A DNA stretch of 64,000 nt, taken from Candidatus Hydrogenedentota bacterium. GTDB taxonomy: Bacteria; Hydrogenedentota; Hydrogenedentia; Hydrogenedentales; JAEUWI01. Location of the stretch: positions 64,001 to 128,000 of the forward strand of contig JAXMOL010000004.1 of the NCBI GenBank assembly GCA_034669905.1. The letters run 5' to 3'. The translations under genes were made by a program, and so were the position numbers. Of the stretch, positions 15,190-27,289 are shown one piece after another. The notes beneath the pieces are model-generated. The model saw nothing but the letters and a program-made list of their open reading frames with translations. It was not told the DNA's origin and did no database searches. The number at the start of each line of letters is the position of its first letter. Position 1 is the first letter of the stretch.

Positions 15190-17076
15190 ATGTCCCGTGA
15201 TTCCCGTATTTTCTACCTCCTACTTCTACTCGCCTTCACCGTATTTGCCGCCAATATCGGTGGCTATGATGTGTGGCCACCCGATGAGCCCCGTTATACC
15301 GAGGTGGCACGGGAGATGGTGGAAAGCGGCGACTACCTGGTGCCCCGTGTAAATGGTGAGGTCTATTTCGAAAAGCCGCCCATGTTGTTCTGGCTCATGG
15401 CCCTGGCTTCCGTGCCGTTCGGAGAGGTCAATGAGGTGGCCGCCCGGCTACCCTCGGTCCTTTGTGCCGTCTATATTGTCGGCCTGACCTATGCCTTGGC
15501 GGCACGACTTTTCACCCGCCAGGTAGCCATCTGGGCAGCCCTCTTGCTCATTACCTGCTTTCGCTTCTGGTACCAGGCCCGCAAAGGGCAGATTGATATG
15601 GTGCTCACGGCAGAGATGCTCACGACCCTCTATGCCTTCTGGCGCTGGGATGAATCGCGTCATACGAAGTGGCTCTTCCTCGCCTATGGGGGTGTCGCGC
15701 TGGGACTCCTCACGAAGGGGCCACCGGCCCTGGTGTTCCCCGGCCTTTTTCTCATCGCCTACTATTGGGGCAACCGGGAGGGACGGGCCTCGACCCGCTG
15801 GGTGTGGGGCTTCCTCGGAGCCATCGCGGTGGTCGCCTTATGGTATGTGCCCGCCCGTATGGCGGGCGCCGATACGGCCGCAGAGGCGGTCCAGAGTGGG
15901 ATGGGTTCCAACCTTTTTCGCAACACCATTGGCCGTGCGCTCATGGGCGTCAGCAAGGCCCAGCCACCGTGGTATTACCTCAAGACCCTGCCGGTGGACA
16001 TGCTCCCCTGGAGCTTTATCTGTCCGCCCATACTGTATTGGGCGTGGAAAGGGCGCAAAGACAACCAGGCCATGCGCTTTCTCTGGGCATGGATCGGGCC
16101 CGCCCTCATCTTTTTCAGCGTCATTATCGGTAAGCGGGAACTCTACCTGTTACCCCTCTTTCCCGTCTTTGGGATTTTGTTCGCGGCCGCCATTGTACAT
16201 CTCAAGGAAACAGAGAATTACCGTTGGATGCGGCGTGGGGGGATGGCGTGGTCCGTCGTGCTGATAGCACTGGGATTTTCCCCCCTCGCACTGCCCTACA
16301 TCCCCTATACATTGGAGTCCAACCTCCATCTATACATCGTGGCCGGCGTGGCCCTGGTGGCGGGTAACGCGGGACTGTTCTACCTTCGAAAATCCTCAGG
16401 GAGCGTCGTTCCGGCGACCTTGGCAACGCAAACAATACTCGTATTTACCGTCGCGGTATTTACCGTGTTCCCGGAGATTGATACCTTTAAGTCTGCCCGA
16501 GACATCTGCGCACCGGTACGGCAATTGGTGGAGGAGGGAGAAGACCCAACCATCTATTCAGCCGGGTTCTCTCGGGAAGAATACGTGTATTATTCTCGCC
16601 ACTTTCATGAACCCGTATTCACCGGGCTCATCGGCGACATTCACCCGGACAATCTGCTGGAGCAAGCCAAGCTGCAAAAGAAAGCCCAGCGACTCATTCA
16701 GCGGGCGGTTGAAGACGTTCCACTTGCCGACCTGGCCCAACCTACCGAGTCAGAACGGAAGGCCCTTCGGGCGGCCATCGACGCTGCCGTGGCGGAGTCT
16801 GACGAGATAGAGGCCATCGTCCATTTCGAAGATGAACTGCGTGTGGAAGTCAACGCCTTCTTTGCCAAGCTGGCTGCGGAATCGCCGGTGTTGTGTTTCG
16901 TCCAGGAAGAAGATTGGCGCTGGCTGCTCGCCTTCCTCGAAGGAGAACAGCCAACGTCCATCATCACGGAACAGGGGGTCGGCAGTCGTCACGTACTCTT
17001 ACTGGCCAATGACGCTGCCGTGGAAGCCCTTAAGACAGCCAATTCAGAATCATCGAAATTACCGTCGGGCCGGTAA
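15190..17076 (+). CDS. ArnT/PMT-like (GT-C fold) membrane glycosyltransferase
   Basis: PDEPRYTEVAREM, YFEKPP, ARLPS, LTKGP, PWYY, KRELYLLP, many TM helices. Confidence 0.85.
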   Translation: MSRDSRIFYLLLLLAFTVFAANIGGYDVWPPDEPRYTEVAREMVESGDYLVPRVNGEVYFEKPPMLFWLMALASVPFGEVNEVAARLPSVLCAVYIVGLTYALAARLFTRQVAIWAALLLITCFRFWYQARKGQIDMVLTAEMLTTLYAFWRWDESRHTKWLFLAYGGVALGLLTKGPPALVFPGLFLIAYYWGNREGRASTRWVWGFLGAIAVVALWYVPARMAGADTAAEAVQSGMGSNLFRNTIGRALMGVSKAQPPWYYLKTLPVDMLPWSFICPPILYWAWKGRKDNQAMRFLWAWIGPALIFFSVIIGKRELYLLPLFPVFGILFAAAIVHLKETENYRWMRRGGMAWSVVLIALGFSPLALPYIPYTLESNLHLYIVAGVALVAGNAGLFYLRKSSGSVVPATLATQTILVFTVAVFTVFPEIDTFKSARDICAPVRQLVEEGEDPTIYSAGFSREEYVYYSRHFHEPVFTGLIGDIHPDNLLEQAKLQKKAQRLIQRAVEDVPLADLAQPTESERKALRAAIDAAVAESDEIEAIVHFEDELRVEVNAFFAKLAAESPVLCFVQEEDWRWLLAFLEGEQPTSIITEQGVGSRHVLLLANDAAVEALKTANSESSKLPSGR

Positions 17077-18454
17077 TGACCACCAGGAGGCCCGCAGCGA
17101 CACTGGTGACACCGCCCACGAGGAGCATATCCCGGTTCTCGATCTGCCCCGTGCCATAGGCAATGGCGTTGGGCGGGGTCGAGATGGGCAGCCCCATGGC
17201 AAAACTCGCCATGATGGCACACATGGCCGCGAGCACCTGGGTCTCTACGGTGGAGCTCCCCAGGCTGACCGCCATAGCGATGCCGATAGGCAATAAAATC
17301 ATGGTGGCAACACTATTGCTGATCACGGTGCTCATGGCCACAGCCAACACGCTGATGAGGGCCGCCAGACCGAAGAAGCCCAACCCTTCGCCGGGGAGTA
17401 CTTTCACGATCCAGGTGTCCAGTCCCGTGGACGTGATACCGTCCCCGAGGGCGATACCACCGGCAATGAGCATGAGGATATTCCAATCCAGGCGATTAAA
17501 GTCCTCTTTGGAAATCACCTGGGTAAGCGTCAGTACCGCGGCAGGTAAGATGGCCACCACGGCAGTGGGGACCCCGTGCCAGGACCCCGTGAGCCACAGG
17601 AGCACGGTCACCGCGAAGGTGGAGTAGACTACCGTGGCGTGTGCCGTCAGTTTGAAATCCTGCTCTACTTTCACCTCAAAGCGATCGCTACGCGGGTGAA
17701 ACAGTGTCAGGAGAAAGGCCCACATCACCGTCAAGGCGACCAGCATAAGCGGAAAGGCGAATGCCATCCACGTAAAGAAACTGATGCCAATACCGGCGTC
17801 TTCCAGTTGGGCCATGGCTATCGCGTTGGGAGGCGTGCCGATGGGGGTGCCAATACCGCCGATATTGGCGGCAAAGGGTACGGCCAGAATCAAGGCCTTC
17901 CGGAAGCGGTCACGGGCTTCTAAACGACTCAGAAAGGGTTGCACCATCACAATCATCATGGCCGTCGTCGCTGTATTGCTCATCCACATGCTGAAAATGG
18001 CGGTAATCAGCATGATCCCCCCGAGCACGGCCCAGGGTCGGGTCCCGAAGGCGCGGAGCAACAGGGCCGCCATCTGGACGTCAATCCGTTCTTTCTGCAC
18101 CGACTTGGCCAGAATGAATCCCCCCAGGAAAAGAAATATCACCGGGTTACTCAGGCTATTGAAAACGGTCTTGTATTCCATGGTCATGCCGAGGTCTTTC
18201 GGCACGGCCACCCACCAGGCCTCCAGGGCGATGACACAGAGACTGGTTGCAAAGAGGGGGATGGCTTCCGTTATCCAGAGGACGACCGCACCGGCAAATA
18301 TAGCCGCCATCCGCCGGGCACCTTCATCCATATCTTCTGGCATAAGCCAGTAACTCAGGGCCCCCGTCAACAGGGATAGGCCGCCCAGTGCCAGGTTCAC
18401 CCATACCGGGCGCAAGGTTGTTTCCACCTCTTCATTGGTTACTTCGTCACTCAT
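17030..18454 (-). CDS. SLC13/DASS Na+:dicarboxylate/sulfate symporter
   Basis: SMWMSNTAT, ANIGGIGTPIGTPPNAI, SNSVA, PISTPPNAIAY. Confidence 0.9.
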   Translation of the reverse strand: MSDEVTNEEVETTLRPVWVNLALGGLSLLTGALSYWLMPEDMDEGARRMAAIFAGAVVLWITEAIPLFATSLCVIALEAWWVAVPKDLGMTMEYKTVFNSLSNPVIFLFLGGFILAKSVQKERIDVQMAALLLRAFGTRPWAVLGGIMLITAIFSMWMSNTATTAMMIVMVQPFLSRLEARDRFRKALILAVPFAANIGGIGTPIGTPPNAIAMAQLEDAGIGISFFTWMAFAFPLMLVALTVMWAFLLTLFHPRSDRFEVKVEQDFKLTAHATVVYSTFAVTVLLWLTGSWHGVPTAVVAILPAAVLTLTQVISKEDFNRLDWNILMLIAGGIALGDGITSTGLDTWIVKVLPGEGLGFFGLAALISVLAVAMSTVISNSVATMILLPIGIAMAVSLGSSTVETQVLAAMCAIMASFAMGLPISTPPNAIAYGTGQIENRDMLLVGGVTSVAAGLLVVITGPTVISMILNWLS

Positions 18455-18536
18455 GGTCCACTACTTTCTGTTGCGGGGGAGATTCACGTCCCCAATCGTG
18501 CTACACAACCGAGCGTGCAGGCATTGAGAACGACAG

Positions 18537-18552
18537 AGCATATTCTATGCCT
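18537..18552 (-). promoter_or_regulatory. Putative sigma54 -24/-12 promoter of the DASS transporter
   Basis: Minus strand AGGCATAGAATATGCT (GG-N10-GC), about 80 nt upstream of ATG 18454. Confidence 0.6.
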
Positions 18553-18696
18553 GTTACGGGCTTCAACGTGTTTTTCCACTTCGCACCACCCCAAATACCC
18601 TGTAATGGCGACCGGCCTCCGCGAACGACGGGGGAGCGGGTAGCTGGTAACCGGTCATTACACAATCGCATCATGCGCAGATCTGGTCTTCGTGAT

Positions 18697-18708
18697 ACAC
18701 TAGTGTGC
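18697..18708. promoter_or_regulatory. Palindromic putative enhancer (UAS) ACACTAGTGTGC, copy 1
   Basis: Perfect palindrome ACACTAGTGT. The identical 12-mer recurs at 26271-26282. Confidence 0.5.
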
Positions 18709-18796
18709 AGTCCGGTCCTGCGCACCCAAGGGGAGCGCAAGTGTATTTGCGCCCATTATACGGGACGATAAACATGCCATGTCACAATTGTGCAAA

Positions 18797-18812
18797 TGGT
18801 ATGGGTCTTGCA
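18797..18812 (+). promoter_or_regulatory. Putative sigma54 -24/-12 promoter of the kinase/activator operon
   Basis: TGGTATGGGTCTTGCA (TGG-N8-TTGC, GG-N10-GC), about 50 nt upstream of ATG 18864. Confidence 0.7.
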
Positions 18813-18863
18813 TAAGTGACAGGCAGTAGAGTCCTACACCCCAACCCCACGAGGCCCACCGCG

Positions 18864-20423
18864 ATGTCGAACGACCCGGTTGAAGACATTCTCTTATCCA
18901 TGTCACTGCAAAAAGCCAGTGATGTGTGGGTCCGTGGTCTGGTTGAGAGCACGGTGGATGCCATTATCACGATCGACGAAGAGGCGACCATCCTGGAGGC
19001 GAACCTGGCCGCCCAACGAATGTTTGGCTACACCCGCAGTGAATTGCTTGGGGAGAATGTTCGTCTGCTGACGCCCCCCCATATTGCCCGCAACCACGAT
19101 ACGTACATCACCAACTATCTGGAAAGCGGTGTCCGCCGAATCATTGGAATCGGGCGCGAAGTGATGGCCCAACACAAGAATGGCACCGAGATCCCGGTAC
19201 ACCTTTCCATCAGCGAAGTGCGCATTGAAGGGCACCGGTACTTTTCCGGCATGCTGCGGGACATGACGGTTGAATTTGAGGCCCGTAAGGAGCAGGAGCG
19301 CTTGCTGGGCGAACTCAAAGAGCGCAACAAAAAGATCACCTGCCTCTACAGCGTGGGGGAGCTCATCCGGGAACAGGAAATCGCAACCGATTTGTTTCGC
19401 TCGGTCGCCCAGGTAGTGCGGCCGGCCTGCACCTTCCCCGAGATTACCCGGGCACGCATTCTCTTCGATGGGCAAGTCTATGAGGAAATGAGCGTCATAG
19501 AGACCCCCTGGGTTTGCAGTGCCCCCATCATCGTCGGTGGACGCAATCGAGGGTCATTGGAGTTGGTCTACCGGGAGGCCATTGAGCCCGTTGTACCCGG
19601 AAATCTTCTCCGGGAAGACGCGACCATGATTGAAGCCATCGCGCGGACGCTGGGTGAAGCGGTTGAGCGGCGGGAGGCTGAGGCCCAGGTTATACAGGCC
19701 TCCAAGCTGGCCTCGATTGGGGAATTAGCGGCCGGAGTGGGGCACGAGATCAATAATCCAATCAATGGGGTCATCAACTGCGTGGACATCCTCCTGGGGA
19801 ATCTCCCAGCGGATGCGCCGGATCGACAGTTTGCGGAGTTGATACGTTCAGAGGCCGAGCGGGTGGCGACCATTGTAAAAAACCTGTTGACCTTTTCCCG
19901 CCAGCAATACGAGCACTACTCCTATGCGAGTATGGCCGATATGGTCGATACGGTGCTCTCGCTGAGTGCCAAAAAAATGGAAAAGTCTTTCATCGACTTC
20001 GACGTCTTCGTACCCGAGGGTCTGCCCCGCATACGATGTCGGCCCGAGCAATTGGAACAGGTCCTGATGAATCTTATCATCAATGCCATCCATTCACTGG
20101 ATGAACGTTATCCGGCCGCCGCGCCAGAAAAGAAACTGTCTATCAGCGTTGAGTCGGCCACCGTACGCCAACGCAAGCACCTTGTGATGGTGGTGGAAGA
20201 CCAGGGCTGCGGGATGTCCGAATCAACCCTCCAACGAATTTTTGATCCTTTTTTCACCACCAAAGGCCGTGACAAGGGAACGGGCCTGGGGCTGTCGGTA
20301 TCCGATGGAATCGTGAAAGATCATGGTGGCTTTTTTGAAGTTACCAGTGAGCCGAATCGGTTTACCTGCTTCAAGGTCTATCTCCCTGTAGATGGCCCCG
20401 TCAAGTCAGGTACCCGCCGATAA
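18864..20423 (+). CDS. Histidine kinase with FixL-like heme-PAS domain
   Basis: PAS segment [26 protein letters not shown]-box [37 protein letters not shown]. No TM segment. GAGG RBS before ATG 18864. Confidence 0.9.
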
Positions 20424-20438
20424 TTCAGGGAGCGTGTC

Positions 20439-22208
20439 ATGCGTACCATATTAATCGTAGAAGACGAAGCTGTTTTACGCCTTACATTTGCCCGTTTCCT
20501 GGAAGAAGCGGGTTATGCCGTGGAATCTGCCGAAAACTATGACGACGCGGTCGCTTTCGTCGAACGCAATCACTTTGATGTAGTCGTCACCGACATCGTC
20601 CTCGGTGGTGAGACCGGCATCGATATCTTGCGTCACATTCGGGAAAAGTCCCCCGAAACGATGGTCATCATGATCACGGGAGAGCCCAGCGTGGAAACGG
20701 CCACGGAGGCGGTGCGGCTTGGTGCCTTCGACTATCTCTCCAAGCCGGTAACCGGGGAAGCGCTGAAACGGGTCGTACGCATGGCGGTTGACCGGGCCGG
20801 TCTCCTGGCAGAACGGGACGATTACGCCGCACGAATGGACGCCTATCGGCGGGAACTGGAGGCCCTCTTTCACGCGGTTAAAGAGGGGATCATCACCGTG
20901 GATGCAAATGGGAAGGTACGCCAGATAAATGCGGCGGCCGCCCAGATGCTTGGTGAGGACGTGCGCGAAATGGCCGGCACGTCGGCGGAGACACTTTTCT
21001 CGGGGCCCCTTCGAAAAGCCTACGACGCATTGCAGCGCACCCTGGAAACCCGCAATGAAGTGGAGGAATTCCACGTAGAAGCCACCCTGCCCCGCAGTGG
21101 GGAAAAGAGCTTTACCATGTCGACCACACCGTTGGATACCGGGGGAAAGGCGGCGGGCGGGGCCGTGTTGGTACTACGGGATTTGACCCGTATCAGCCGG
21201 CTCGAAAAGCAACTCGCGTCCACCCATCAGTATCAGAATATGGTGGGCAAATCTTCCCGTATGGCGGAAGTCTTCAATTTGATAGAGAACGTGGCGGAAA
21301 CGGATTCCACCGTACTCATCTATGGCGAAAGTGGCACCGGTAAAGAATTGGTAGCGGCGGCGCTCCACTATACGAGTCACCGCTCCAATGGTCCCTTTAT
21401 CAAGGTAAACTGTGCCGCCCTCGCCGAAGATATTCTGGAGAGCGAGCTTTTCGGCCATGTGAAAGGCTCCTTCACCGGCGCAGTCCGGGACCGGGTGGGA
21501 CGCTTTGAAGCCGCTAATGGGGGTACCATTCTCCTCGACGAGATCGGTGATATTTCCCCCCGACTTCAGTTGCGGCTGCTTCGTGTGCTCCAGGAGCGCG
21601 AATTCGAACGGGTAGGGGATACGCGACCGATCCAGGTGGACGTCCGTATTGTCGCCTCGACCAATCAGAATCTGGTTCAGAAGATTGAGGAAAATACTTT
21701 TCGGGAAGATCTCTACTACCGGCTGAACGTCGTCCGGATTGAACTGCCCGCGCTACGAGAACGGCGTGCGGACATTCCCCTGTTGATCGATCACCTGTGT
21801 AAGAAGTTCAATACAATCTTCAAGAAAGACATTGTTGGCCTCTCCTCCCAGGCACTGGAAATGCTGATGCACTATCCCTGGTTCGGCAATGTTCGGGAAC
21901 TGGAGAATTGCCTGGAGCGTTCCTTCATCGTATGCCACGATACTGTCATCCTGCCTGAACATCTCCCGCCAGAAATTGCGAAGCGCCCCCAACGTGCCAT
22001 GGCCCATACGCCGAGTCCCCACGATGCAGAGGCCGCGGTGGGCTATGCCCGACAGGAAGACGGCGAACGCATGCGCGTACTGGAAGCCCTGGAACGAACC
22101 GATTGGAATGTGGCCAAGAGCGCCCGCATTCTCGGCGTAGCGCGAAATACCCTCTATCAGCGCATTCGAACCTTCAAGCTAACCCGTCCCAACGGCAAGG
22201 GCTTCTAA
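20439..22208 (+). CDS. Sigma54-dependent activator (REC-PAS-AAA+-Fis HTH)
   Basis: REC (VEDE, VTD, YLSKP), PAS, GESGTGKE, ESELFGHVKGSFTGA, LDEIGD, FREDLYYRL, GNVREL, C-terminal HTH ARILGVARNTLY. Confidence 0.95.
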   Translation: MRTILIVEDEAVLRLTFARFLEEAGYAVESAENYDDAVAFVERNHFDVVVTDIVLGGETGIDILRHIREKSPETMVIMITGEPSVETATEAVRLGAFDYLSKPVTGEALKRVVRMAVDRAGLLAERDDYAARMDAYRRELEALFHAVKEGIITVDANGKVRQINAAAAQMLGEDVREMAGTSAETLFSGPLRKAYDALQRTLETRNEVEEFHVEATLPRSGEKSFTMSTTPLDTGGKAAGGAVLVLRDLTRISRLEKQLASTHQYQNMVGKSSRMAEVFNLIENVAETDSTVLIYGESGTGKELVAAALHYTSHRSNGPFIKVNCAALAEDILESELFGHVKGSFTGAVRDRVGRFEAANGGTILLDEIGDISPRLQLRLLRVLQEREFERVGDTRPIQVDVRIVASTNQNLVQKIEENTFREDLYYRLNVVRIELPALRERRADIPLLIDHLCKKFNTIFKKDIVGLSSQALEMLMHYPWFGNVRELENCLERSFIVCHDTVILPEHLPPEIAKRPQRAMAHTPSPHDAEAAVGYARQEDGERMRVLEALERTDWNVAKSARILGVARNTLYQRIRTFKLTRPNGKGF

Positions 22209-22293
22209 GGTCTTTGCGCCTTCTTTGCAGCCTGTGTTAGGGTCTCCTCCGGTTTACGTTTCGCCCAAGGGCTTCACGACGGAGAGAGCACCT

Positions 22294-23259
22294 ATGAAGA
22301 CAAGCACCGGTATCTGGAAAACTACCCTCGCCCTCGTTGCGCTGGTGGCTGGCCTCGTTGCCTCAGCTGCGACCGCGGCCGAAAAGGCCCCAATACGTCA
22401 GGAGAGTGCCACCGGTATCCGCCACTCCCTCCTGATTACAGGGTCGACCGGTACCTACCTCTTCGATGAATCCAGCGCGCTGGTGTGGGAGACGCCGGGG
22501 TATTCCCGGGATGGATACGTGCTGGAAAACGGGAATATTCTCCTCTCGATCGACGACACAGCCCGGGAGTATGAAAAGGGGACACAAACGGTTGTCTGGT
22601 CCTATGCCCTGGATCCGGTGAATAAGGAATTGGGTACCGTTTATCGGCTCGACAATGGGCATACCCTTGTGGTGGAGCGGGGGAGCAAACCCCGAATTCT
22701 CGAAGTAACGACAGACGGCGCCATTGCCGTCGAAGTCCCGCTGCAGCCAGACACCGACAATGACCATATGCAGACTCGGATGGCCCGTAAGCTCCCCAAC
22801 GGTAATTACCTGGCACCGCACCTGCTGGCCTTCAAAGTGAAAGAATACACGCCAGAAGGCAAGGTCGTCCGGGAAATTCCAACAGACCTGCCCCTCTTTG
22901 GCAACCGGGACGACCACTCATGGCCTTTTACGGCCATTCTGCTGCCCAACGGCAATATCCACGCGAACCTGACCCACGGGAATCGGGTGGCCGAGTTCGG
23001 GCCGGATAATGAAGTCGTCTGGTATCTCGACAACAGCCACGTTGGTGGGCGACTCAGCGACCCCTGTGGAGGACAACGGATGCCCAACAACAACATGGTC
23101 ATCTGCAGCTACGCCCAGAAAGATCCGGCCATGCCAAAGGTCTTTGAAGTCACGCGTGATAAAGAAGTGGTCTGGGAGTTTTTCCACCCCACGGCACGTG
23201 CCCATGAGGTGCATATCATCACCACCGATGGCGAACGGGTGACTCCCCTGATGCGCTAG
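22294..23259 (+). CDS. Secreted beta-propeller protein (arylsulfotransferase-like repeats)
   Basis: Signal peptide MKTSTG...ASAATA. Repeated L-x-NG-N-x-L / EV...G.V.W units. Confidence 0.6.
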
Positions 23260-26006
23260 TCGTTCAGCTCCAACACCACTTCCGTCGGCTCTCCAATAGA
23301 TTTCTGTAATTTGAAGCCTATCTTCTGGCATACGTGCAGCATGGAGCGGTTGTCGGCCAGGACGGTTCCCGTGATCCGTTGGAGCCCTTCGGCCCGCCCC
23401 ACATCCACGAGACGCTGGAGTAATTCGGAGCCCACGCCGTGCCCCTGCAACTCATCACTGACCACAATGGCGAATTCGCCATCGCCCCGACCATACTCTT
23501 TCATCAGGCGCCCCACGGCCACGATTTCAGAGACGTCGGTCGATTCGTTGTACCGCACGACGACGAGGGCGATTTGGCGATCATAGTCGATGAAGCAGAG
23601 GCGGGTGAGTCGCTCGTGGCTGACCCGCTGATCCAGGGATATCAATCCCAGGTAGCGGGAGTAGACCGTATCCGCGGACAAGGTCTTGTGAAAGTCCACC
23701 ATGAGGGGCTCATCTTCTGAGCGAATGGGGCGAATGTGGACCTTTTCTCCCTTTTTCGTTTCCCAATCCCCGCTGTATTCCAGGGGATAGGGACGTATGG
23801 CCAGCCGCGGCAGATCGGCTTCCTTCACATCGGGCTCATGGAGGAGTACCCGACCATCCAACGCAACCAATCCCATGGGCGATGCGAGGAGGGGGTTGAT
23901 GTCGATCTCTTTGATCCAAGGCTGCTCAACAACCAGCTTGCTGAAACGTACGAGCAGGAGCTCAAGGGCGTTCAGATCAACCGGGTCCCGTCCCCGAACC
24001 CCTTTCAGCGCGGTGTATATCCTGGTCTGTTCCATCATGCGCCGGGCAAGCGTCGTATTCAATGGCGGAAGTCCCAGGGCACTGTCTTTAAAGACTTCGA
24101 CCAATTCACCGCCGGCACCAAAGAGCAGTACGGGGCCGAATTGGGCATCGATGCTGCTCCCGATGATGATTTCGTAGCCTTCATGGCGCACCATGGGCTG
24201 CACGACCACGCCCTCGAAGTGCGCCGCGCCGGCCTTCTCGGTGACACCTTTCTGTATGCTCTCGAAGGCGCCAGAGACGGTCTTGGCCGATTTCAGATTC
24301 AACTGGACGCCACCCACATCAGTCTTATGGGTAATGGTGTTGGAATAGAGTTTCAGCACCACCGGATAACCCATCTCTTCGGCAATGGCTACCGCTTCTT
24401 CCGCACTGGTTGCGACTTCGGTCTTCACGACCGGAATGCCATACGCTTTCAGAATCTTCTTCGATTCGTGTTCGGGCAAGGTGGTATGACCGGCGTCACG
24501 GGCGTTCTTGATGAGTTCCGCAACCAAGGCCCGATCGGGGCCCTTTTCGTCCTCATCGGGCGGGAGCAGGGGCGTCTCGTAGAGCCCACGGAGGTTATAG
24601 TTGTAGCGCCACATCAGGTTAAAGACCCGGGCGGCGGCATCGGGATAATCAAACGTGGGGATGTCGTGCTCGTTCAATATGGCATCACCAGCTTCCACGT
24701 CGGCTCCACCCATCCAACTGGCCAGCACGGGTTTCTTTGTCGGCATCTGGACCTTTACCAGTTCCTCGGCCGTTTTGGTGGGATCGGTCATGGCCTGGGG
24801 CGTAAGTACCACCAACAGGCCATCACTATTGGGGTCCTGGGCGGCTATTTCCAGGGCCTGGGCGTAGCGTTTCGGATCGGCATCCCCCAGGATGTCGATG
24901 GGGTTTCCGTGGCTCCAGGCCCCCGGAAGGACGGCATCAAGTTTTGCGATCGTATCTTCCGACAACTGCGCCAGTTCGCCACCATCGCCGATAACGGCGT
25001 CGGTAGCCAATACACCGGGTCCCCCCGCGTTGGTGAGAATCGTCAGGCGTGGCCCACGGGGACGGGGCTGCTTCTCGAGCACTTCGGCCATGTGAAAGAG
25101 GTTATCAATGCTGTACACCCGAGAGACACCGCTCCGTCTGAAAGCGGCGGAGAGGACCCCGTCACTTCCCGCCAACGACCCGGTGTGGGAGGCAGCTGCC
25201 TGCGCTGCAGCTTCGGTCTGGCCAGCCTTTATGACAATAATGGGCTTGGTGAGGGCCACTTCCCGGGCCGCCGAGAGAAAGGAACGGGCATTGCCGATGG
25301 ACTCCATATAGATCACAATGCTCTTGGTATGCGGATCGTCTCCGAGGTAGTGGATGAGGTCGCCCCAATCCACATCCAGCATGGAACCAATCGAAACGAA
25401 AGCACTGAAGCCCACGTTCGTCTGGTGGCTCCAGTCGAGAATTGAGGTGCACAGGGCACCACTCTGACTGATAAAGCCGACGCTGCCGGGACGGGCAATG
25501 GTGCTGGCAAAGGTGGCGTTCATTCCGCTGATGGGGTTCATCACCCCGAGGCAGTTGGGCCCCACGATACGCATGTTGCCTTTTCGTGCCGCTTCGAGCA
25601 CCTCCGCCTCTAAGGCAATCCCCGCCTCTCCAACCTCCTTAAAGCCTGCCGAAATAATAATGGCACCCTTCACGCCGGAGGCGACACATTCCTGTACCAG
25701 TTGGGGGATAGATGCCGCAGGGGTCACCAGAATCGCGAGATCGATAGGCTCGGGAATCTCGGATACGGCGGGATAGGCCTTGATTCCCAACACATTGTTC
25801 CGGTTGGGGTTTACGGCATAGATCGTGGCGCCGAAGGGGTTGCTGATAAGGTTCCACAGTATCGTCCGGCCCACGCTACCCAGCTTTTCCGTCGCGCCGA
25901 TAAGCGCAACGGATCGCGGATTGAATATGGCGTCGATGGACCCGAAACGGTTGGAAGATCCAATTGGTACTCGATTTGAAGAAGATTCTTCCTGATGCTT
26001 CGGCAT
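23256..26006 (-). CDS. Bifunctional acetate-CoA ligase (ADP-forming) family / GNAT acetyltransferase (Pat/YfiQ type)
   Basis: [48 protein letters not shown]-grasp [29 protein letters not shown]. Confidence 0.92.
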
Positions 26007-26106
26007 GATGGTGCTTACTCCCGACGCGCTGTCATGATTTGCTGAATTGGAACACATTGATGCGTTCGTTTTGATACTATCACAGGATGTATGTTGAAGT
26101 GGAATG

Positions 26107-26122
26107 AGCAAGTAGAGTGCCA
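26107..26122 (-). promoter_or_regulatory. Sigma54 -24/-12 promoter of the acetate-CoA ligase/GNAT gene
   Basis: Minus strand TGGCACTCTACTTGCT matches the TGGCAC-N5-TTGC consensus exactly. An AT-rich tract (26161-26200) lies upstream. Confidence 0.8.
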
Positions 26123-26125
26123 GTT

Positions 26126-26230
26126 TGTTGCGCGCTGCACACCCGTCCTGCCGCGCACGGAGTTATCGTATATAACAAGTTATAAACAAATATGTTACAA
26201 CTGCACCTCGCCCGCTGTTGCGCGCTACAC
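26126..26230. repeat. 15-bp direct repeat TGTTGCGCGCT(G/A)CAC, two copies 90 bp apart
   Basis: Copies at 26126-26140 and 26216-26230 with one mismatch. Confidence 0.7.
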
Positions 26231-26270
26231 GGCCCGGCCCGCTTCACAGATATGTTCAAGAAGAAATGCG

Positions 26271-26282
26271 ACACTAGTGTGC
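26271..26282. promoter_or_regulatory. Palindromic putative enhancer (UAS) ACACTAGTGTGC, copy 2
   Basis: Identical to 18697-18708, 150 nt upstream of the sigma54 GG doublet. Confidence 0.5.
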
Positions 26283-26310
26283 GCTTAACCCCGATGGAGT
26301 CACTGCCTGG

Positions 26311-27007: not shown

Positions 27008-27289
27008 ATGAATCGGGAAGAATCTGAGAAAAAGTTAGCGGCGGCATTGGAACACGTCAGCCCGGCCCACTTGCGCAGCCGTGCGCTCGTTACCAAACGC
27101 CTTACGTTTCGCATGCATGAAGAAGAATTCGAGGAGATTCGACGTACAGCGGAATCGTTGGATTTGTCGATTTCTGACTACTTTTGCGCCCTTCACCACT
27201 ACGCGGCAGCTCGAATCGAGGGCATCGACCGGGGTGCCGATTGGGTCCACCGTAATCCACGTCACCGTGAAGATTCGACCGAAGACTAG
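27008..27289 (+). CDS. Small ribbon-helix-helix-like protein
   Basis: LTFRMHEEEFEEIRRTAESLDLSISDY fits the RHH strand-helix-helix pattern. GGAGG RBS present. Confidence 0.55.
   Translation: MNREESEKKLAAALEHVSPAHLRSRALVTKRLTFRMHEEEFEEIRRTAESLDLSISDYFCALHHYAAARIEGIDRGADWVHRNPRHREDSTED

Follow-up and report, generated by a model that had tools for sequence, protein, structure and literature searches.

A 64,000-nt stretch of the genome of a Candidatus Hydrogenedentota bacterium (GCA_034669905.1, contig JAXMOL010000004.1, positions 64,001 to 128,000 of the forward strand; the window) carries an operon for a histidine kinase and a sigma-54 activator, and raises the question of what this pair controls and which signal it reads. 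An initial annotation had proposed a local mini-regulon, in which the activator drives its own operon, a flanking DASS-family organic-acid transporter gene and a flanking acetate-CoA ligase gene from one shared palindromic enhancer. Our analysis points instead to a regulon that extends across the phylum and has the rnfB-PFOR-rnf operon, encoded elsewhere in the genome, as its conserved core target. From comparative sequence analysis we consider it probable that a FixL-type oxygen sensor is wired directly to the activator and that the two form an anaerobic switch.

All three sigma-54 -24/-12 boxes that had been annotated are present: AGGCATAGAATATGCT (18552-18537, minus strand) before the DASS gene, TGGTATGGGTCTTGCA (18797-18812, plus strand) before the kinase-activator operon and TGGCACTCTACTTGCT (26122-26107, minus strand), which matches the consensus, before the ligase gene. 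Transcription starts are predicted near 18526, 18823 and 26096, respectively, and rpoN was found in the genome. The DASS box is retained in 6/6 same-genus relatives that keep DASS at that place, the kinase box in 7/7 examined and the ligase box in 8/8 as well as in genomes G011 and G022. The 12-mer ACACTAGTGTGC starts at 18697, which is 146 nt from the GG doublet of the DASS box, and at 26271, which is 150 nt from that of the ligase box. In each spacer a word described as related to it stands before the copy, CAGATCTGGTC by 20 nt and CAGATATGTTC by 25 nt. A scan of the 7.44-Mb genome returned just these two copies of the 12-mer. The chance of such sharing had been put below 1%; our controls gave slightly higher values, with any 12-mer common to both spacers in 1.3% of 3000 Markov shuffles and in 2.5% of 6000 random pairs of real intergenic regions, so that the sharing by itself is weak, suggestive evidence. 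The exact 12-mer was also absent from the spacers of the same-genus relatives examined, where a looser 16-bp palindrome is conserved along with the boxes. With two genome copies, no conservation and 21 one-mismatch 10-mers that are mostly unrelated, it was rejected as the enhancer. Matches to the IHF consensus were absent from the DASS-kinase spacer at two mismatches and weak in the ligase spacer, and the single metatranscriptome (share 0.08) yielded 19 scattered short contig pieces.

The looser element was obtained de novo from relatives alone, using 15 promoter regions from eight relatives with this genome left out, and was refined on 14 regions after removal of a mis-anchored kinase upstream region (HK_G011). 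The result was a 16-bp palindrome, TGnRCA-N4-TGYnCA, with an expectation-maximization log-likelihood of 114 at width 16 compared with 23-30 for shuffled input. Each of the two words, the 12-mer and its relative, forms the core of a separate copy of this palindrome. Thus, the idea of common upstream sites holds, the unit being a degenerate palindrome in two to three copies rather than the exact 12-mer, and the CAGATCTG word that had been taken for a separate element is another copy of the same palindrome. With the matrix trained without this genome, the predicted activator sites in the DASS-kinase spacer are site 1, TGCGCA-GATC-TGGTCT (18674..18689, 10.2 bits, holding CAGATCTGGTC), which is common to the two divergent promoters, and site 2, GATACA-CTAG-TGTGCA (18694..18709, 11.7 bits, holding the 12-mer at 18697-18708). 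A possible extra site (18781..18796, 10.5 bits) abuts the kinase box and is comparable to proximal sites at -29 in G001, G002, G006 and G008; that it could damp autoregulation is speculative. Upstream of the ligase box, the strongest predicted site lies at -128 (26243..26258, 14.4 bits, holding CAGATATGTTC) and a distal one at -153 (26268..26283, 7.2 bits, holding the 12-mer at 26271-26282), with counterparts at -127 and -152 in G005. A proximal activator-like site at -68 (26183..26198, 11.4 bits) corresponds to sites at -60 in G001, G002, G006 and G008.

The window promoters rank 1st, 4th and 5th among the 299 genes of this genome with a sigma-54-like box, according to purpose-made gene calls and a sigma-54 matrix built from the consensus. 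High-ranking promoters with a box and a site, all outside the training set, were also found on other contigs. They precede a DsrOP-like multiheme operon (C36), the gene of an OmcA/MtrC-type decaheme cytochrome (C1), that of a GTP-PEP carboxykinase (C2) and an rnfB-PFOR-rnfCDGEA operon that includes a ferredoxin-NADP reductase-like gene (C45:45970-57209, minus strand; L167, L378). The PFOR inside this last operon is a fused protein of 1624 aa.

The likely reader of these sites is the neighbouring activator (20439..22208, plus strand; 589 aa), which has the composition of a sigma-54 enhancer-binding protein: a REC domain with Asp52, a PAS domain, an AAA+ domain with a GAFTGA-type loop and a C-terminal Fis-type HTH with an ARNTLY helix, in a genome with rpoN and with boxes preceded by tandem palindromes. 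The loop reads GSFTGA here and in G007; among 37 orthologues it is GAFTGA in 31 and GVFTGA in one, and three have a changed fifth position. The recognition helix is near-invariant in 38 sequences. An orthologue is present in 43 of 109 genomes of the phylum (44 counting a truncated copy in G095), and the closest named relative also comes from Ca. Hydrogenedentota. Beyond the phylum, neither a FixL-type PAS neighbour nor the ARNTLY helix was seen at 77 loci of other activators.

The presence of the activator could be compared with that of its predicted sites at the rnfB-PFOR promoter. In a first set of genomes, box and site were found in 12/12 activator-positive genomes (this genome included) and in 0/5 negatives. 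The rule was then fixed (box at least 10, site at least 9 bits) for 37 further genomes, 27 of which have rnfB and PFOR adjacent, giving 13/15 positives and 1/22 negatives. The exception, G095, holds the truncated orthologue, which is 63% identical; moving it to the positives gives 14/16 versus 0/21, and overall 26/28 genomes with the activator versus 0/26 without. The two misses are G077, where 275 nt were available, and G089, where the paired sites score 7.3 and 8.7 bits. Both states, activator and promoter present or both absent, occur inside family f5. A similar association is seen around the activator gene itself: the surroundings of 30 activator loci, 0.317 Mb in total, contain 26 promoters with box and site, spread over 18 of the loci (three of the regions had served in motif training). 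This is an enrichment of ∼25-fold over the density in this genome as a whole, 3.1 per Mb; near unrelated activators, 1.13 Mb of sequence contains 8. These two comparisons support sigma-54 promoters with common upstream sites, as first annotated, and make it very likely that the regulon belongs to this activator. The neighbouring activator had also been named as its own regulator, which agrees with sites in this family and a few others.

Other targets gave counts in the same direction. The PEPCK promoter has box and site in 10/14 activator-positive and 0/4 negative genomes (2/20 loci were too short), and the MtrC gene has sites of at least 13 bits, with weaker boxes, in 3/3 relatives carrying it. 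The ligase box, for which the promoter sites were partly in the training set, was found in 11/12 activator-positive genomes whose homologue has the SHTG motif discussed below, in 0/4 whose homologue lacks it and in 0/14 activator-negative genomes. A strict pattern applied to 15 activator-positive genomes gave 73 matches, 48 of them intergenic with a downstream open reading frame (ORF); 28 and 26 of the encoded proteins were profile-scanned and the others assigned by BLAST to this genome. Half of the 48 precede Fe-S, multiheme, hydrogenase or fermentation genes, comprising rnfB, HmcB-like, NapC-like and c3/c7 multiheme, group-3b and HoxEF-like hydrogenase, Pta, Hcp, Fe-S repair protein and DUF362 genes. 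The remaining 24 consist of four before the kinase, two before DASS, five with another activator's word and 13 other or unknown. The group-3b hydrogenase, Fe-S repair and NuoEF-like operons of this genome lack box and site; the copies in relatives have them.

Several loci touching the motif deserve separate mention. A ∼370-aa membrane protein family stands repeatedly behind box and site promoters in family f5 (L285/G073, L307/G094, L329/G076, L346/G090), and three of its proteins gave no Pfam or NCBIfam match at the thresholds used. A 155-aa unannotated protein (G000:C41:14538-15005; L161:5538-6005) has one strong site (15.7 bits) and a weak box and is a possible further member. The second-ranked gene of this genome, for a REC-kinase (G000:C32:62838-64037; L158:2838-4037), has a sigma-54 box and tandem GTACA-AAAT-TGTAC-type sites. 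It was left out as a target because this word is found again in activator-negative genomes and, in four other genomes, stands before genes of the same family; its promoter is conserved phylum-wide, genomes without this activator included, and it is likely the target of another activator. C3:119526, which resembles it, was also left out. In family f8, G036 and G030 (L115, L116) have a kinase without heme-PAS, the activator loop GAFTTA and no strict-pattern matches, and the system there looks degenerate.

What the pair senses is suggested by the kinase (18864..20423, plus strand), a soluble protein of 519 aa in which Pfam places a PAS, a HisKA and a HATPase domain. The best PDB matches of its PAS domain are the FixL and DosP heme domains (E = 2e-26 to SmFixL), and its H-x2-Y helix and IIGIGR loop are in register with FixL. 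It thus has the proximal His (His78) and the distal Arg (Arg98) of a FixL-type PAS, and these two residues, together with His294 of HisKA, are invariant across 64 homologues. According to the accessible part of PMC10765370, the equivalent residues of FixL bind the heme (His) and O2 (Arg), and release of O2 activates the FixL kinase. Between PAS and HisKA lies a middle domain that we read as GAF-like from the secondary structure of an AlphaFold2 model; the whole-protein fold search did not settle its fold (pTM 0.45). Named full-length homologues of the kinase come from Hydrogenedentes, plus one under the label 'FCB group'. The FixL-type domain had gone unnoticed in the initial annotation, and because the kinase carries it, a theme of oxygen and anaerobic energy metabolism is likelier than the organic-acid and acetyl-CoA theme proposed there. 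Full-length heme-copper oxidase matches (E ≤ 1e-95, hand-classified) occur in 36/44 activator-positive and 14/65 negative genomes. A search of this genome for FNR-type proteins was negative: the one Crp-family protein above cut-off is CRP/NtcA-like and lacks the FNR-type cysteine cluster. A second protein with a FixL-like heme-PAS motif, of 1246 aa (G000:C26:10778-14518), is a possible second oxygen input.

One of the top promoters, with its box at C3:20107, has no gene behind it. It precedes a candidate structured non-coding RNA of ∼430 nt (C3:∼20134-20570, corresponding to L363:1534-1992, plus strand), conserved in 8/8 genus relatives (9/9 genomes with this one). Each locus has a box, paired sites 14-15 bp apart, and a 3' end formed by a hairpin and a T-run. 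The consensus fold of the nine related sequences contains 72 pairs, 28 of them changed on both sides, which none of 500 shuffles matched, and a 20-nt C-rich loop is invariant. Two loci searched against Rfam gave no match at the gathering score and no tRNA match, and no reading frame is conserved across the genus sequences. An ORF of ∼105 codons inside the RNA was rejected because its frame shifts between subclades (one frame comparison covered 5/10 genomes). No convincing target emerged when 5301 start regions were searched by duplex energy. In Pseudomonas, the CbrAB sigma-54 activator system drives the ∼400-nt regulatory RNA CrcZ; the C3 RNA differs in having an invariant C-rich loop in place of A-rich repeats, and in lacking an Rfam match. 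A similar ORF-less unit lies behind a box and site promoter in G011 (L332).

With a FixL-type kinase beside the activator, and a motif that tracks the activator at anaerobic genes, the pair likely activates these genes when oxygen runs out. The targets include O2-sensitive Fe-S enzymes, which fits an on-state in the absence of O2. In the mechanism that we propose, the PAS domain would hold heme with O2 as its ligand, and without O2 the deoxy kinase would autophosphorylate and pass the phosphate from His294 to Asp52 of the activator. The activator would then bind the tandem TGnRCA-N4-TGYnCA palindromes ∼70-155 bp upstream of the -24/-12 boxes and open the sigma-54 promoters using ATP, with starts ∼12 nt below the GC doublets. 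Induction of rnfB-PFOR-rnfCDGEA would convert pyruvate to acetyl-CoA while Rnf reoxidises ferredoxin, and induction of the ADP-forming acyl-CoA ligase would convert acetyl-CoA to acetate with formation of ATP. Further predicted targets are the GTP-PEP carboxykinase, the DASS transporter, the DsrOP-like multiheme complex, OmcA/MtrC-type cytochromes, the ∼430-nt RNA and the kinase-activator operon itself. A broader proposal is that this is an undescribed master aerobic-to-anaerobic switch of Ca. Hydrogenedentota that replaces FNR/ArcA, in which the activator directly drives PFOR-Rnf, substrate-level ATP synthesis, hydrogenases and multihemes and, in this genus, the RNA silences aerobic functions post-transcriptionally; here we see the case as evenly balanced.

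A number of observations weigh against an oxygen switch of this form. The FixL-type PAS was not found in four apparently complete kinases (G020, G030, G036 and G077) of 33 seen, two more being cut by contig ends, and G020 nevertheless keeps the PFOR promoter. Five activator-positive genomes (G077, G082, G097, G102 and G103) have no COX1-family match. Most f5 loci lack autoregulation, and the cytochrome-operon promoter passes in just 3/11 activator-positive genomes (0/1 negative). At the PFOR promoter, the sequence retrieved for 10 of the 22 negatives contained no adjacent PFOR, a low-threshold recheck covered five negatives, and the genomes are kin, so that the counts overstate independence. 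The motif itself is degenerate and overlaps the GTACA-AAAT-TGTAC-like word of another activator, a word that activator-negative genomes have too; a hand tally over the 109 genomes gave ∼3.5 strict-pattern matches per activator-positive genome against ∼1.2 per negative, only a ∼3-fold separation.

Some of these points would be explained if the activator, sites and regulon were as described and the signal were another one, with the heme-PAS reporting NO, CO or heme redox state, or with the activator PAS and the kinase middle domain giving the main input. The kinases without heme-PAS and the hosts without a COX1-family match fit such a signal, as do Hcp and the Fe-S repair di-iron protein, which are among the targets in other genomes and are often NO-induced. 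We nevertheless regard it as unlikely, since the distal Arg, which hydrogen-bonds O2 in FixL (accessible part of PMC10765370), is invariant in the 64 homologues and the targets at the core of the regulon belong to central fermentation and Rnf rather than to detoxification. Closer to the initial annotation is a system resembling AtoSC, in which an organic acid or acyl-CoA would be the signal for its own transport and activation. The DASS and ligase genes flank the pair, the E. coli AtoC site given in the available text of PMC3118216 scores 10.7 bits on our matrix, and AtoS and AtoC are the best NCBIfam matches. Both matches are below cut-off, however (225 of the 646 bits required for AtoS and 429 of 714 for AtoC), the sensor is a soluble heme-type PAS, DASS occurs in 9/41 genomes searched compared with 19/41 for the activator, and the conserved targets are PFOR-Rnf, hydrogenases and multiheme cytochromes, which together leave this explanation distinctly improbable.

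The remaining doubts concern the sites. Of 35 matches to the sigma-54 activator domain in this genome, 25 are full domains, and the look-alike word belongs to a different regulator in activator-negative genomes, so real sites might be read by another of these ∼25 proteins. The co-occurrence of 26/28 versus 0/26 and the enrichment around this particular gene speak against it, and the ARNTLY helix is found in none of the 19 other activator C-termini of this genome among the matches listed; we consider another reader very improbable. That the common words are functionless products of chance or local duplication would suit the control frequencies of the 12-mer and its lack of conservation. It does not suit a degenerate motif that keeps a fixed distance from a likewise conserved box in several families, also at promoters outside training, and the held-out promoter tests already disfavour this explanation, which we find barely credible.

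The FixL-type oxygen switch is thus the reading that we retain, and the other genes of the locus can be viewed in its light. Gene order is kept in most same-genus genomes. The DASS gene (17030..18454, minus strand; TIGR00785 above cut-off) encodes an anion/dicarboxylate symporter. The control of this gene that had been proposed is supported by its site and box, yet it is specific to the genus, and G003 has lost DASS beside the kinase. Downstream of the activator, a 321-aa probably secreted protein (22294..23259, plus strand) with weak Mal s 1-like and arylsulfotransferase matches is syntenic in most of the genus and is probably a bystander. The ligase gene (23256..26009, minus strand) encodes a predicted ADP-forming acyl-CoA synthetase with an attached GNAT domain, in the Pat/PatZ architecture; the start at 26009 was preferred because of a conserved GGGAG upstream. 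It retains the catalytic phospho-His of such synthetases in the SHTG motif (His274), which is absent in E. coli PatZ (structures 9IT0/9ISQ), and scores 555 of 567 bits with TIGR02717, just below cut-off; the GNAT domain may be active too. Homologues of the fusion (L118-L147) split into an SHTG-bearing group, which is regulated, and a Pat-like group with neither SHTG nor a sigma-54 promoter. Further along, a small NikA-like ribbon-helix-helix gene (27008-27289) lies between a histidine phosphatase and an OPT transporter gene and is syntenic in part of the genus.

Like the first annotator, we did not recognise a described regulon: the literature searched (open papers, main text) held no description of the kinase-activator system, and a term search of PMC12316311 gave no mention of the phylum. 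There are likenesses to known systems. In the accessible text of PMC11841059, NmpRSTU of Myxococcus xanthus places a heme-based kinase that senses oxygen ahead of an NtrC-like sigma-54 activator; the system is autoregulated, has tandem palindromes as sites and governs a low-oxygen regulon that includes a USP. It differs in using the protoglobin NmpU and a multi-component relay where here the activator has a single FixL-type heme-PAS kinase as its direct partner, in its site (GCGCA-N5-TGCGC) and in its microaerobic targets (cbb3, hemN, hemerythrin) as opposed to fermentative and anaerobic ones (PFOR-Rnf, acyl-CoA ligase, hydrogenases, multihemes). The Pfam scan found no globin domain here, and the spacer is N4. 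FixJ, the partner of FixL, is a LuxR-type, non-sigma-54 regulator. The rhizobial FixLJ system shares the heme-PAS with proximal His and distal Arg, and a kinase predicted here to be on without O2, and its FixJ triggers FixK2 expression (accessible part of PMC10765370); here, the kinase has a middle domain in addition and its partner is a REC-PAS-AAA+-HTH activator that is predicted to control metabolic operons directly. NF041777 accordingly gave 185 of 850 bits, over residues 19-168 (the PAS) only. AtoSC of E. coli also joins a kinase to a sigma-54 activator controlling acyl-CoA metabolism, with a resembling site, but its signal is acetoacetate, and the available part of PMC3118216 reports no heme sensing of the FixL type. 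Both equivalog scores are below cut-off, and the top annotated targets of this genome include no CoA-transferase, as a target of the atoDAEB kind would require. FNR, ArcAB and DosRS switch on genes for fermentation and anaerobic respiration, to which enterobacteria add an anaerobic small RNA; the global role is alike, and the proteins and sigma factor differ.

We conclude that this is a real, well-supported regulon and a new form of the heme-oxygen-sensing sigma-54 systems, with a mechanism assembled from known parts. The phylum is called facultatively anaerobic, a judgement from gene content, in the accessible parts of PMC11406978 and PMC10866078, which describe no such regulator. The system would add a design for the choice between aerobic and anaerobic life, in which a FixL-type sensor leads straight to sigma-54 and core fermentation genes. 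Its kinase, activator and sites are soluble parts amenable to testing in E. coli, and the activator site provides a marker for uncharacterised redox genes and RNAs acting under anoxia. For an uncultured, globally distributed phylum, it gives a first concrete regulon.

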